DNA of 64,000 nucleotides from Escherichia coli (lineage in GTDB: Bacteria; Pseudomonadota; Gammaproteobacteria; Enterobacterales; Enterobacteriaceae), in the NCBI RefSeq assembly GCF_044324785.1, contig NZ_CP172127.1. The stretch is one strand, 5' to 3'. The position numbers were made by a program, and so were the translations under genes. The notes under the pieces are model-generated. The model ran no database searches and was not told where the DNA came from. It saw only the letters and a list, made by a program, of their open reading frames with translations. How positions within the stretch are numbered: position 1 is the first letter of the stretch; the number at the start of each line of letters is the position of its first letter. Shown piece by piece: positions 3,220 through 49,406 of the stretch.

Positions 3220-4410
3220 TCACAGCACCTTATGCGGGCCAAAGCATTCGTAATGAATGTTTTCCTGCTTCACGCCCAGATCCACTAACTGTTTCGCGGC
3301 AAACTGCATGAAGCCAACCGGGCCGCAGAGATAGAACTGCATTGTCGGATCGCTGAACGCACCTTCCAGTTTGCTCAAATCCATCAGACCTTCGCTATCA
3401 AACTGACCTTTAGCGCGATCGGCTTCGCTTGGCTGACGATACCAGGTGTGCGCGGTAAAGCGCGGCAGTGCTTGCCCCAGTTCCTTAACTTCATCGGCAA
3501 AGGCGTGAACATCGCCATTTTCTGCCGCATGGAACCAGTTCACTTGTGCTGTGTGGCCAGCTTTTGCCAGCGTGTCGAGCATTGCCAGCATTGGCGTTTG
3601 ACCGACACCGGCAGAGATTAACGTCACTGGTGTGTCATCTGCGACAGCCATAAAGAAATCACCTGCTGGAGCAACCAGTTTCACGACATCGCCAACATTG
3701 GCGTGATTGTGCAGCCAGTTGGATACCTGCCCGCCCTCTTCGCGTTTCACCGCAATACGATAGCCTTTGCCATCCGGTTTGCGAGTCAAAGAGTACTGAC
3801 GAATTTCCTGATGCGGGAAACCTTCCGGCTTCAGCCAGACGCCGAGATATTGCCCCGGACGGTATTCTGCCACTGCGCCACCGTCGACCGGCTCCAGTTC
3901 GAAGCTGGTGATAAGTGCGCTGCGCGGTGTTTTAGCCACAATGCGGAAATCGCGAGTACCTTCCCAGCCACCGGCTTTGCTGGCGTTTTCGTTATAGATT
4001 TCCGCCTCGCGATTGATAAATACATTAGCCAGTACGCCATAGGCTTTACCCCACGCGTCCAGCACTTCCTGGCCCGGGCTGAACATTTCGTCCAGCGTCG
4101 CCAACAGGTGTTCGCCGACGATGTTGTACTGTTCCGGTTTGATCTGGAAACTGGTGTGCTTCTGCGCGATTTTTTCTACCGCTGGCAGCAGCGCAGGCAG
4201 GTTTTCAATATTACTGGCGTAGGCGGCAATGGCGTTAAACAGGGCTTCACGTTGATCGCCATTACGCTGGTTACTCATGTTAAAAATTTCTTTGAGTTCT
4301 GGGTTATGAGTAAACATACGGTCGTAGAAATGGGCGGTTAACTTTGGCCCTGTTTCCACCAGTAAAGGGATGGTGGCTTTTACTGTAGCGATGGTTTGAG
4401 CGTCAAGCAT
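3220..4410 (-). CDS. hmp: Flavohemoglobin (nitric oxide dioxygenase)
   Basis: ORF beginning [17 protein letters not shown] (396 aa) with globin domain plus FAD/NAD reductase domain; the ORF-track N-terminal extension was trimmed to this Met. Confidence 0.95.
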
Positions 4411-4436
4411 ATGGTCTTCCTTTTTTTGCATCTTAA

Positions 4437-4459
4437 TTGATGTATCTCAAATGCATCTT
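4437..4459. promoter_or_regulatory. NsrR-type operator in the hmp promoter
   Basis: On the hmp strand the sequence reads AAGATGCATTTGAGATACATCAA, a near match to the NsrR box as I remember it, 27-49 bp upstream of the hmp start codon. Confidence 0.6.
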
Positions 4460-4737
4460 ATAAAAAATAGCCCTGCAATGTAAATGGTTCTTTGGTGTTT
4501 TTCAGAAAGAATGTGATGAAGTGAAAAATTTGCATCACAAACCTGAAAAGAAATCCGTTTCTGGTTGCAAGCTCTTTATTCTCCAAAGCCTTGCGCAGCC
4601 TGAAGGTAATCGTTTGCGTAAATTCCTTTGTCAAGACCTGTTATCGCACAATGATTCGGTTATACTGTTCGCCGTTGTCCAACAGGACCGCCTATAAAGG
4701 CCAAAAATTTTATTGTTAGCTGAGTCAGGAGATGCGG

Positions 4738-5991
4738 ATGTTAAAGCGTGAAATGAACATTGCCGATTATGATGCCGAACTGTGGCAGGCTATGGAGCAG
4801 GAAAAAGTACGTCAGGAAGAGCACATCGAACTGATCGCCTCCGAAAACTACACCAGCCCGCGCGTAATGCAGGCGCAGGGTTCTCAGCTGACCAACAAAT
4901 ATGCTGAAGGTTATCCGGGCAAACGCTACTACGGCGGTTGCGAGTATGTTGATATCGTTGAACAACTGGCGATCGATCGTGCGAAAGAACTGTTCGGTGC
5001 TGACTACGCTAACGTCCAGCCGCACTCCGGCTCCCAGGCTAACTTTGCGGTGTACACCGCGCTGCTGGAACCAGGTGATACCGTTCTGGGTATGAACCTG
5101 GCGCATGGCGGTCACCTGACTCACGGTTCTCCGGTTAACTTCTCCGGTAAACTGTACAACATCGTTCCTTACGGTATCGATGCTAGCGGTCATATCGACT
5201 ACGCCGATCTGGAAAAACAAGCCAAAGAACACAAACCGAAAATGATTATCGGTGGCTTCTCTGCATATTCCGGCGTGGTTGACTGGGCGAAAATGCGTGA
5301 AATCGCTGACAGCATCGGTGCTTACCTGTTCGTTGATATGGCGCACGTTGCGGGCCTGGTTGCTGCTGGCGTCTACCCGAACCCGGTTCCTCATGCTCAC
5401 GTTGTTACTACCACCACTCACAAAACCCTGGCGGGTCCGCGCGGTGGCCTGATCCTGGCGAAAGGTGGTAGCGAAGAGCTGTACAAAAAACTGAACTCTG
5501 CCGTTTTCCCTGGTGGTCAGGGCGGTCCGTTGATGCACGTAATCGCCGGTAAAGCGGTTGCTCTGAAAGAAGCGATGGAGCCTGAGTTCAAAACTTACCA
5601 GCAGCAGGTCGCGAAAAACGCTAAAGCGATGGTAGAAGTGTTCCTCGAGCGCGGCTACAAAGTGGTTTCCGGCGGTACTGATAACCACCTGTTCCTGGTT
5701 GATCTGGTTGATAAAAACCTGACCGGTAAAGAAGCTGACGCCGCTCTGGGCCGTGCTAACATCACCGTTAACAAAAACAGCGTACCGAACGATCCGAAGA
5801 GCCCGTTTGTGACCTCCGGTATTCGCGTGGGTACTCCGGCGATTACCCGTCGTGGCTTTAAAGAAGCCGAAGCGAAAGAACTGGCTGGCTGGATGTGTGA
5901 CGTGCTGGACAGCATCAATGATGAAGCGGTTATTGAGCGCATCAAAGGTAAAGTTCTCGACATCTGCGCACGTTACCCGGTTTACGCATAA
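4738..5991 (+). CDS. glyA: Serine hydroxymethyltransferase
   Basis: 417-aa [19 protein letters not shown]... with the PLP-lysine region ([14 protein letters not shown]); divergent from hmp. Confidence 0.95.
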
Positions 5992-19336: not shown

Positions 19337-21248
<1,912 letters not shown>

Positions 21249-28419: not shown

Positions 28420-28530
28420 TAAAAAGTATTCAGAATCAGGCCGGAGTGTTTAACACTCCGTAAACACGGTCGTACATCCAGCCGGTAGCCTGGTTCCTTG
28501 CATTGAGTGATGTACGGAGTTTATAGAGCA

Positions 28531-29772: not shown

Positions 29773-30159
29773 ATGGCTTACAGCGAAAAAGTTATCGACC
29801 ATTACGAGAATCCGCGTAACGTGGGTTCCTTTGACAACAACGACGAGAACGTCGGCAGCGGCATGGTGGGTGCACCGGCCTGTGGCGACGTGATGAAGTT
29901 GCAGATTAAAGTCAACGATGAAGGTATCATTGAAGACGCGCGTTTTAAAACTTACGGCTGCGGTTCTGCTATCGCTTCCAGCTCCCTGGTCACCGAATGG
30001 GTGAAAGGGAAGTCTCTCGACGAAGCGCAGGCGATCAAAAACACCGATATTGCTGAAGAACTTGAACTGCCGCCGGTGAAAATTCACTGTTCTATTCTGG
30101 CAGAAGACGCGATCAAAGCCGCCATTGCGGACTATAAAAGCAAACGTGAAGCAAAATAA
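29773..30159 (+). CDS. iscU: Fe-S cluster scaffold protein IscU
   Basis: 128 aa with GAPACGDV and LPPVKIHCS motifs. Confidence 0.95.
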   Translation: MAYSEKVIDHYENPRNVGSFDNNDENVGSGMVGAPACGDVMKLQIKVNDEGIIEDARFKTYGCGSAIASSSLVTEWVKGKSLDEAQAIKNTDIAEELELPPVKIHCSILAEDAIKAAIADYKSKREAK

Positions 30160-35105: not shown

Positions 35106-35882
35106 ATGTCCGAAACAAAAAACGAACTTGAAGATCTGCTGGAAAAAGCAGCAACCGAACCGGCGCACCGCCCGGCCTTTTTCCGTACGCTACTGGGATC
35201 CACCGTCTGGGTGCCTGGTACGGCGGCGCAGGGCGAGGCTGTGGTTGAAGATAGCGCACTTGATTTACAGCACTGGGAAAAAGAAGACGGCACCAGTGTC
35301 ATTCCTTTTTTCACCTCGTTAGAAGCACTTCAACAGGTGGTTGAAGACGAACAGGCATTTGTCGTAATGCCCGTTCGCACATTGTTTGAGATGACCCTTG
35401 GCGAAACGCTCTTCCTTAATGCCAAACTGCCAACCGGTAAAGAATTTATGCCGCGTGAAATCAGTTTGCTGATTGGTGAAGAAGGAAATCTGCTGAGCAG
35501 CCAGGAAGTACTGGAAGGCGGTGAATCGCTGATATTATCGGAAGTTGCAGAGCCACCAGCACAAATGATTGATTCACTCACCACCTTATTTAAAACCATT
35601 AAGCCAGTGAAGCGTGCTTTTCTTTGTTCAATTAAAGAGAACGAAGAGGCACAGCCTAATTTACTTATTGGCATTGAAGCCGATGGTGATATCGAAGAAA
35701 TTATTCAGGCGGCGGGAAGTGTAGCGACCGATACATTACCTGGCGATGAACCCATCGATATTTGTCAGGTGAAAAAAGGGGAAAAAGGAATTAGCCACTT
35801 TATTACCGAACATATTGTGCCATTCTATGAACGTCGCTGGGGTGGTTTTTTGCGTGACTTTAAACAGAACCGGATAATCTAA
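35106..35882 (+). CDS. sseB: SseB (enhancer of serine sensitivity) family protein
   Basis: 258 aa from MSETKNELEDLL; position between pepB and sseA. Confidence 0.85.
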   Translation: MSETKNELEDLLEKAATEPAHRPAFFRTLLGSTVWVPGTAAQGEAVVEDSALDLQHWEKEDGTSVIPFFTSLEALQQVVEDEQAFVVMPVRTLFEMTLGETLFLNAKLPTGKEFMPREISLLIGEEGNLLSSQEVLEGGESLILSEVAEPPAQMIDSLTTLFKTIKPVKRAFLCSIKENEEAQPNLLIGIEADGDIEEIIQAAGSVATDTLPGDEPIDICQVKKGEKGISHFITEHIVPFYERRWGGFLRDFKQNRII

Positions 35883-35885
35883 AAT

Positions 35886-35912
35886 ATGCCGCCCCAAAGG
35901 GCGGCATTCGGG
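35886..35912. terminator. Bidirectional intrinsic terminator: ends sseB on the + strand and the putative ryfA transcript on the - strand
   Basis: Hairpin gccgccc caaa gggcggc; on the - strand it is followed by atatttt. Confidence 0.55.
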
Positions 35913-36199
35913 CTTACCTGCTGTTCTGAAGGTTGTTAACCACCAATAAATTGTTGCCGGAGAGACTCCGGTTATTATTTACCTCGGTTAACAGCGCACC
36001 AGAAACAATAAGTACGATACAAAAGCACCGTATCTTCATTGTGCGGTCCATGCGAAGACCGCATCACGACAGCACCACTGGCGATATTGCCGCGATAGCA
36101 AGCGCTGAGACGCGCTTGCCCTAACGGTCGCGGAACATCCTTTCCTTAAGCCAGCGCCCGCTTGCGAGACGGCGGAAAGGTCCGCAGTGGATAACACAC
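35893..36199 (-). ncRNA. ryfA: Putative ryfA transcript (about 300 nt), a small mRNA/sRNA carrying a short hydrophobic ORF
   Basis: From memory, ryfA lies next to the sseB 3' end in K-12. Candidate - strand promoter (-35 TTGTCA, 16-bp spacer, -10 TATTGT) near 36207-36234 and the terminator at 35886-35912 bound a roughly 300-nt unit. Confidence 0.45.
35914..36051 (-). CDS. Small hydrophobic ORF (45 codons; 41 from the internal Met at 36039): MDRTMKIRCFCIVLIVSGALLTEVNNNRSLSGNNLLVVNNLQNSR; candidate type I toxin-like membrane peptide (TimP-like)
   Basis: Hand-translated from the - strand; hydrophobic stretch CFCIVLIVSGALL; lies inside the putative ryfA transcript; not in the ORF track because it is under 60 aa. 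Confidence 0.35.
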   Translation of the reverse strand: MDRTMKIRCFCIVLIVSGALLTEVNNNRSLSGNNLLVVNNLQNSR

Positions 36200-36262: not shown

Positions 36263-36359
36263 CGCTGAGACGCGCTTGCATTACTACGGTTATACAATCT
36301 GCTGGAAAGGCCGCGAACCAAACCAGCAACAAATAACCGCCTGATTTTGGCGGTTTTTT
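36263..36359 (+). ncRNA. Candidate sRNA (about 97 nt) divergent from ryfA, with a 17-nt perfect antisense match to the ryfA 5' region; antitoxin-like (TimR-like)
   Basis: Promoter TTGACA (36228-36233), 17-bp spacer, GAGTAT; internal hairpin tgctgg...ccagca; intrinsic terminator aaccgcc tgatttt ggcggtt plus T6 at 36335-36359; 36263-36279 is identical to 36103-36119 on the same strand. Confidence 0.4.
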
Positions 36360-36539
36360 GTTGTTTAAAGAAAGTGAAATTACACGTTTAAGTAATATCT
36401 TTTACCAGTTAGTATATTTTAATATTAAGCGGGATTTGTTTATATTTGTCTGAATTCGGACTGATAAGCCAAATGAATTCAAAATCTATCCTTTTTTATC
36501 TACTTGACATCGTTGATGCATAAAGCGAGTATTGAGTAG

Positions 36540-44969: not shown

Positions 44970-45117
44970 TCTATTTTGTCCCTGATTGTTGCTTAAACTG
45001 GGTTTATTTTAAAAAAATGTTACCTTCATCAATAGTCAACGGCTCTGTTGCTCATTATAATCCGCGCCATCTCGTACGCTGGTACAGACAACAACAGAAC
45101 AATTTACAGAGGTAAAA

Positions 45118-48177: not shown

Positions 48178-49296
48178 ATGCATAACCAGGCTCCAATTCA
48201 ACGTAGAAAATCAACACGTATTTACGTTGGGAATGTGCCGATTGGCGATGGTGCTCCCATCGCCGTACAGTCCATGACCAATACGCGTACGACAGACGTC
48301 GAAGCAACGGTCAATCAAATCAAGGCGCTGGAACGCGTTGGCGCTGATATCGTCCGTGTCTCCGTACCGACGATGGACGCGGCAGAAGCGTTCAAACTCA
48401 TCAAACAGCAGGTTAACGTGCCGCTGGTGGCTGACATCCACTTCGACTATCGCATTGCGCTGAAAGTAGCGGAATACGGCGTCGATTGTCTGCGTATTAA
48501 CCCTGGCAATATCGGTAATGAAGAGCGTATTCGCATGGTGGTTGACTGTGCGCGCGATAAAAACATTCCGATCCGTATTGGCGTTAACGCCGGATCGCTG
48601 GAAAAAGATCTGCAAGAAAAGTATGGCGAACCGACGCCGCAGGCGTTGCTGGAATCCGCCATGCGTCATGTTGATCATCTCGATCGCCTGAACTTCGATC
48701 AGTTCAAAGTCAGCGTGAAAGCGTCAGACGTCTTCCTCGCTGTTGAGTCTTATCGTTTGCTGGCAAAACAGATCGATCAGCCGCTGCATCTGGGGATCAC
48801 CGAAGCGGGTGGTGCGCGCAGCGGGGCGGTTAAATCCGCCATTGGTTTAGGTCTGCTGCTGTCTGAAGGCATCGGCGACACGCTGCGCGTATCGCTGGCG
48901 GCCGATCCGGTTGAAGAGATCAAAGTCGGTTTCGATATTTTGAAATCGCTGCGTATCCGTTCGCGAGGGATCAACTTCATCGCCTGCCCGACCTGTTCGC
49001 GTCAGGAATTTGATGTTATCGGTACGGTTAACGCGCTGGAGCAACGCCTGGAAGATATCATCACTCCGATGGACGTTTCGATTATCGGCTGCGTGGTGAA
49101 TGGCCCAGGTGAGGCGCTGGTTTCTACACTCGGCGTCACCGGCGGCAACAAGAAAAGCGGCCTCTATGAAGATGGCGTGCGCAAAGACCGTCTGGACAAC
49201 AACGATATGATCGACCAGCTGGAAGCACGCATTCGTGCGAAAGCCAGTCAGCTGGACGAAGCGCGTCGAATTGACGTTCAGCAGGTTGAAAAATAA
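48178..49296 (+). CDS. ispG: 4-hydroxy-3-methylbut-2-enyl diphosphate synthase (MEP pathway)
   Basis: 372 aa, Cys ligands ([15 protein letters not shown]). Confidence 0.95.
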
Positions 49297-49386
49297 TAAC
49301 GTGATGGGAAGCGCCTCGCTTCCCGTGTATGATTGAACCCGCATGGCTCCCGAAACATTGAGGGAAGCGTTGAGGGTTCATTTTTA
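49297..49386 (+). ncRNA. sroE: Probable SroE-like 3'UTR-derived sRNA between ispG and hisS
   Basis: Two stem-loops (gggaagcg cctc cgcttccc; tgaaccc...gggttca) followed by T5 at 49381-49385; from memory, SroE sits in this spacer in K-12. Confidence 0.45.
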
Positions 49387-49406
49387 TATTCAGAAAGAGA
49401 ATAAAC

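Follow-up and report, generated by a model that had tools for sequence, protein, structure and literature searches.

The 23-bp element upstream of hmp in an Escherichia coli strain: very probably the NsrR operator, doubling as an FNR operator

The 23-mer AAGATGCATTTGAGATACATCAA lies on the minus strand at 4459..4437 of the analysed E.coli DNA (a stretch of 64 kb, called the window here). We are highly confident that this element is the NsrR operator of the hmp promoter and doubles as an FNR operator. It is the already published NsrR operator of E.coli hmp, known in exactly the same form, and nothing in the feature at 4437-4459 is new: it is real but ordinary. Our own analysis showed that the sequence equals the published one, and it supplied the matrix score, the placement with respect to promoter and transcription start, and the conservation. 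That NsrR occupies the site in vivo, that hmp is derepressed by NO or by nsrR mutation, and how the cluster reacts are taken from the literature.

Identity and architecture of the site

The element is located in the 327-nt spacer between the divergent genes hmp and glyA, with the ATG of hmp 49 nt downstream. The start codon of glyA (4738..5991, plus strand; RefSeq annotation) is 279 nt away from the operator, and the glyA promoter is not overlapped. In the 64-kb window the 23-mer occurs exactly once; with up to three mismatches allowed, no second copy was found in the window, nor was there any match in 100 dinucleotide-preserving shuffles. The plus strand of 4437-4459, TTGATGTATCTCAAATGCATCTT, agrees in 23 of 23 positions with the hmp entry in Table 4 of Mehta et al. 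2015 (PMC5320621), which has a ChIP-seq peak in strain CFT073. The PatSer ln P of the hmp site is -18.22 (threshold -14.28), which places it sixth among the 27 sites of that table (PMC5320621). The CFT073 coordinate given there, 2948634, is the start of the 23-mer in the CFT073 record (site at 2948634-2948656), and K-12 MG1655 carries the same 23-mer at 2685786-2685808 without any difference. This hmp site had also been predicted by Rodionov et al. 2005.

The first-pass annotation of this DNA had proposed an NsrR-like operator from a match to the NsrR box in the hmp/glyA divergent region, overlapping the hmp promoter. This box was right, as its plus-strand form is the hmp entry of Mehta et al. 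2015 (PMC5320621). The placement holds as well: the site lies between hmp (3220..4410, minus strand) and glyA (4738..5991, plus strand) and overlaps both the -10 hexamer of hmp (TAAGAT, 4460..4455) and the mapped start of transcription (4447). A scan with a RegulonDB matrix had been suggested as a check; with a matrix from the published ChIP-seq set in place of the RegulonDB one, the score is above the threshold (ln P -18.22 vs -14.28).

By the definition of Partridge 2009, in the form in which PMC5320621 and PMC10783083 relay it, an NsrR operator is a 23-bp inverted repeat of two 11-bp half-sites similar to AAGATGCATTT with a gap of 1 bp. The element at 4437..4459 (minus strand; exact single match and matrix) has this 11-1-11 architecture in the form of an imperfect inverted repeat, AAGATGCATTT-G-AGATACATCAA. 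Its left, promoter-proximal half (4449..4459, minus strand) is exactly AAGATGCATTT. With 15.6 bits in the half-site matrix this is the best score on both strands within 4381-4760, and the half-site is the one listed as hmp(44) by Mehta et al. with a PatSer score of 10.92 (PMC5320621). The right half (4437..4447, minus strand; AGATACATCAA, reverse complement TTGATGTATCT) was assigned by its symmetry with the left half and is degenerate. Seven of the 11 symmetric positions agree between the halves, and operator positions 14 (G) and 23 (A), both in the right half, are Escherichia-specific departures from the family pattern. A second single half-site, AAGATGCAAAA, is present in the 5' UTR of hmp (4424..4434, minus strand), 25 nt downstream of the first. 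It is weak (7.4 bits), poorly conserved outside Escherichia, and corresponds to hmp(19) of Mehta et al. (PatSer score 5.00; PMC5320621).

The NsrR consensus gATGyAT-N5-ATrCATc, which was derived by comparative genomics (Rodionov et al. 2005), fits 4437-4459 with zero mismatches; a search of the window that tolerates two mismatches gives no other site. For scoring, a palindromic weight matrix was built from the 11-1-11 sites of Table 4 of Mehta et al. 2015. The hmp site and one of two duplicate entries were excluded from the training set (leave-one-out), and two versions were used, one from all 25 remaining sites and one from the 15 sites with a ChIP-seq peak. The operator scored 18.1 bits with the 25-site matrix and 18.9 bits with the 15-site matrix (training sites, 12.0-32.2 bits), and by the leave-one-out matrix it ranks first among the 63,978 positions of the window. 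Its score was equalled in four of 200 shuffles of the 64-kb window with the 25-site matrix and in two of 200 with the 15-site matrix. Because both the matrix and the spacer are AT-rich, the null was repeated on the spacer alone; here 11 of 5,000 dinucleotide shuffles of the 327 nt reached the operator score. A consensus match without mismatches, the first rank in the window and the small number of shuffles that equal the score together mean that the site is real, well beyond chance.

Four further matches of the NsrR matrix, at 29896-29918 (inside iscU), 44999-45021 (in the pbpC-ndk spacer), 20614-20636 and 593-615, were at or below the level of the shuffles and were dismissed. IscR, an Rrf2-family paralogue of NsrR, is encoded in the window at about 27.9-28.4 kb. 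The iscR promoter region gave no notable match to the NsrR matrix, which fits the distinct specificities of IscR and NsrR. No RNA family was found in an Rfam scan of the hmp-glyA spacer. Elsewhere in the window, Rfam matches at the gathering threshold were obtained for the iscRS stability element (28420-28529, plus strand) and for the sRNAs ryfA (35881-36185, minus strand), IS128 (36317-36495, minus strand) and sroE (49296-49387, plus strand), all of which are expected in the corresponding part of the E.coli chromosome.

Position of the operator in the hmp promoter

A sigma-70 scan of the hmp strand identified a promoter with 9 of 12 consensus bases, composed of the -35 hexamer TTTACA (4479..4484, minus strand), an 18-nt spacer and the -10 hexamer TAAGAT (4455..4460, minus strand). 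TAAGAT is conserved across 79 Enterobacteriaceae, and TTTACA hardly varies in the alignment across species. The first five bases of the operator coincide with the final five of TAAGAT. In the E.coli row of Fig. S3 of Rodionov et al. 2005, the experimentally mapped start of transcription is the A after TTTG. This A is operator position 13 (4447, minus strand), 7 nt past the -10 hexamer, and leaves a 5' UTR of 37 nt. Thus the operator, whose centre is position -1, spans -12 to +11 relative to the hmp start. It overlaps promoter and start, as is looked for in a repressor site of a nitrosative-stress gene, and this geometry, across the -10 hexamer and the start, is the one expected for a repressor that blocks RNA polymerase.

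The hmp gene itself (hmpA; 3220..4410, minus strand; RefSeq, uninterrupted ORF) encodes an NO-inducible flavohaemoglobin of 396 amino acids, followed by the stop codon. Residues 1-396 are 99% identical to the copy of E.coli E69. An in-frame ATG at 4429-4431, inside the second half-site, leads a mechanical list of open reading frames to an hmp of 403 amino acids (3220..4431). No Shine-Dalgarno sequence precedes this ATG at 4431, which belongs to the 5' UTR; the RefSeq start is at 4410. The hmp strand carries a run of seven A residues (4421-4427) in the interval from the second half-site to the Shine-Dalgarno sequence of hmp; its length is 6, 7 or 8 in sampled E.coli. Over a 79-nt promoter stretch 1,774 genomes show 95-99% identity, some of them probably because the length of this run varies.

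Conservation and the embedded FNR box

A 551-nt stretch (4300-4850) matches 5,425 of 5,426 complete E.coli genomes with at least 95% identity, and the annotations there are always hmpA (NO-inducible flavohaemoprotein) and glyA (serine hydroxymethyltransferase). A 30-mer centred on the operator is present without change in 5,219 of the 5,426 genomes. The 327-nt spacer differs from that of K-12 MG1655 at only two positions, 4596 and 4562, both in the central spacer and away from the hmp core promoter and the operator. MetR sites, among others, are described in the hmp-glyA region. The hmp sites of K-12 and CFT073 are placed identically with respect to the -10 hexamer, the start and the ATG, and operator and core promoter show no difference; over the whole spacer, CFT073 differs from the window by the substitutions at 4596 and 4562 and by single-base indels at 4469 and 4427. 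The suggestion of the first-pass annotation that the regulatory region is intact is thus borne out on the cis side: the two spacer bases that differ from K-12 are outside promoter and operator, and the hmp ORF is uninterrupted.

In strain N3 the stretch 4300-4850 (551 nt, which spans the spacer) is 100% identical to the window, and the first 8 kb contain 113 differences. Compared with N3, about 120 additional bases are present in the window somewhere from approximately 16.5 to 34 kb, where the offset between anchors goes from +2 to -118. Small indels between the two are found near 11 kb, 16.5 kb and 48 kb, and pepB of N3 is annotated as frameshifted.

For the family, one genome per species was scanned with the Hmp protein, which yielded 80 Enterobacteriaceae loci. 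The 78 loci with at least 330 nt upstream of hmp were used, and the best NsrR matrix match within these 330 nt was recorded. In 78 of 78 other Enterobacteriaceae loci this match lies 40-61 nt before the ATG, mostly at 48-50; the match is therefore conserved at the orthologous position in every locus. The scores range from 17.2 to 30.5 bits over the 78 loci and from 20.3 to 30.5 bits in the 74 non-Escherichia loci. The E.coli operator has the lowest NsrR score of the 79 orthologues, 17.2 bits, as compared to a median of 26.0 and a minimum of 20.3 outside Escherichia. G at position 14 is exclusive to Escherichia operators among the Enterobacteriaceae compared. Positions 1, 2, 4, 5, 8, 9, 13, 15, 16 and 18 never vary in the 43 distinct operators.

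The hmp operator of Salmonella Typhimurium, AAGATGCATTTGATATACATCAT, is orthologous and has an equal distance from the ATG. It differs from the E.coli operator at two bases, with T instead of G at position 14 and T instead of A at position 23, and it scores about 8 bits above E.coli with the NsrR matrix (25.4 for the identical sequence in L014). The operator of the Enterobacter/Klebsiella type is AAGATGCATTTAAAATACATCAT, and that of Escherichia sp. L004 contains a perfect FNR box.

The mean column information of the operator is 1.62 bits, as compared to 1.31 bits in the rest of the spacer. In plain phylogenetic footprinting the operator does not stand out: it ranks 58th of 308 23-nt windows of the spacer, as conservation is higher still on the glyA side. 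The informative test is therefore the positional conservation of the matrix match rather than plain footprinting. Moreover, the conservation of the left half is not separable from that of the -10 hexamer and the start site.

The promoter-distal part of the operator contains an FNR-type box, TTGAG-ATAC-ATCAA (TTGAGATACATCAA; 4437..4450, minus strand), which agrees with TTGAT-N4-ATCAA in 9 of 10 bases and is situated just downstream of the hmp transcription start. Four boxes of this quality are found in the window and 2.25 are expected, that is, their number is at chance level. A 9/10 match is too common in the window for the sequence by itself to prove an FNR site. In the literature, Fnr is a reported negative regulator of hmp (PMC2884951); by the account that PMC2884951 gives of them, Poole 1996 and Cruz-Ramos 2002 reported FNR binding and anaerobic repression through this site. 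Candidate FNR sites are also marked in the hmp alignment of Rodionov et al. 2005 (Fig. S3). FNR binding at the hmp site of E.coli is already known from such reports, and the element is a composite operator for NsrR and FNR. As the same bases form the FNR box, the NO response of the element does not run through NsrR alone.

Could the element then be an operator for FNR only, with an incidental resemblance to the NsrR box? The distal 14 bases with their 9/10 match just past the start site and the reported negative regulation by Fnr would fit this, and so would the Escherichia-specific G12 and A23, which improve the FNR match and lower the NsrR score. We nevertheless consider it very improbable. 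Apart from the chance-level frequency of such boxes in the window, AAGATGCATTT, a perfect NsrR half-site, falls outside the FNR box. Most other genera have, at the orthologous place, a strong palindrome for NsrR that fits FNR poorly (3-7 of 10), and an NsrR ChIP-seq peak exists at the identical sequence. Alternatively, the element could be nothing but core promoter together with the first transcribed bases, and promoter constraint or chance would then account for its conservation and its AT-rich near-palindrome. It is true that its first five bases belong to the -10 hexamer, that its centre is the start site, and that the whole spacer is well conserved with the operator not being the most conserved block. 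Yet the right half (+1 to +11), which has no promoter role, keeps the dyad with the left half in 79 species, the matrix score was equalled by only the 11 of 5,000 composition-matched shuffles mentioned above, and the sequence is identical to a site bound in ChIP-seq. To us this explanation is slightly less credible still than that of an operator for FNR only. No evidence contradicts the explanation as an NsrR operator.

What is mildly new is that the E.coli operator combines the weakest NsrR match of the family with a near-consensus FNR box, and that a few genomes carry a 29-bp duplication. Across the family, operators with a better FNR-box match tend to have lower NsrR scores, in a comparison that is uncorrected for phylogeny. 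Substitutions at positions 12 and 23 in Escherichia, Salmonella and Citrobacter bring the FNR box to 9-10 of 10, and together with G14 they make the NsrR match the lowest among 79 Enterobacteriaceae. It is conceivable, if rather doubtful, that selection reshaped the hmp operator of these three genera into a compromise site for NsrR and FNR. If this were true, FNR, as a sensor of O2 and NO, would take over part of the control of hmp from the NO sensor NsrR, and hmp would be left as a leaky, low-affinity target of NsrR.

The tandem duplication of 29 bp occurs in five of the 5,426 complete E.coli genomes (746, SCU-109, CE2050, ECamp083 and MS14384). The duplicated unit, TTTGAGATACATCAATTAAGATGCAAAAA on the hmp strand, corresponds to 4422-4450 of the window, which itself is without duplication. 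As seen in MS14384 (L085, positions ~30-90), the right half, the FNR box and the second half-site are present once more, and the 5' UTR of hmp becomes 29 nt longer.

Regulation of hmp by NsrR

NsrR is an NO-sensitive FeS repressor of the Rrf2 family; NO lowers its affinity for DNA and relieves the repression of hmp (PMC6950321, PMC2884951), which is strongly repressed by NsrR (PMC2884951). The nsrR gene is outside the window. In K-12 it is located between purA and rnr, about 1.7 Mb away, and it is present in 5,425 of 5,426 complete E.coli genomes.

From the position of the site and the cited literature the following course can be proposed. When no NO is present, the iron-sulfur repressor NsrR would bind the 23-bp imperfect palindrome as a dimer. 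The bound dimer would lie over the -10 hexamer except for its first base, over the start and over transcribed bases 1 to 11, so that RNA polymerase could not form a productive complex and hmp would be off. On reaction of NO with the iron-sulfur cluster, NsrR would lose affinity for the DNA, whereupon the NO-detoxifying flavohaemoglobin could be made. We infer that promoter occlusion, i. e. the exclusion of RNA polymerase by occupancy of -12 to +11, is the mechanism of repression. Under anoxia, FNR could bind the embedded TTGAG-N4-ATCAA box and would act likewise, as a repressor.

The ytfE operator, AAGATGCATTTAAAATGCATCTT, is the best NsrR site of E.coli and has the same 11-1-11 architecture as that of hmp. 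The left half of the hmp site, AAGATGCATTT, is identical to both ytfE half-sites. Whereas the ytfE site is a perfect palindrome with an ln P of -25.13 and a ChIP-seq peak height of 247, the right half of the hmp site is degenerate (7/11 symmetric), its ln P is -18.22, its peak height is 32, and it has an FNR box inside (peak heights from PMC5320621). The low score of the E.coli operator agrees with this modest ChIP-seq peak. The hmp site may therefore repress less tightly than those of ytfE and hcp.

Direct binding has been studied with related proteins. Purified Salmonella NsrR shifts the Salmonella hmp operator in EMSA, and the operator has also been modelled (PMC10783083). In the crystal structure from Streptomyces coelicolor (PDB 7B0C), a dimer of [4Fe-4S]-NsrR, an NO-responsive Rrf2 repressor, sits with its winged helix-turn-helix on the 23-bp hmpA1 operator (PMC9338935), which likewise is found upstream of a flavohaemoglobin gene. 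The sequence of the hmpA1 operator, AACACGAATATCATCTACCAATT, differs from that of E.coli hmp, and ScNsrR binds the E.coli hmp operator very weakly; the DNA-contacting residues differ between the two proteins (PMC9338935).

Hmp that is made without regulation produces superoxide and lowers fitness in macrophages (PMC2884951). Since it is harmful, an intact switch is the expected state. The site at 4437-4459 therefore serves as a sanity check only: the strain carries the standard, unaltered cis switch, which holds the flavohaemoglobin off until NO arrives.
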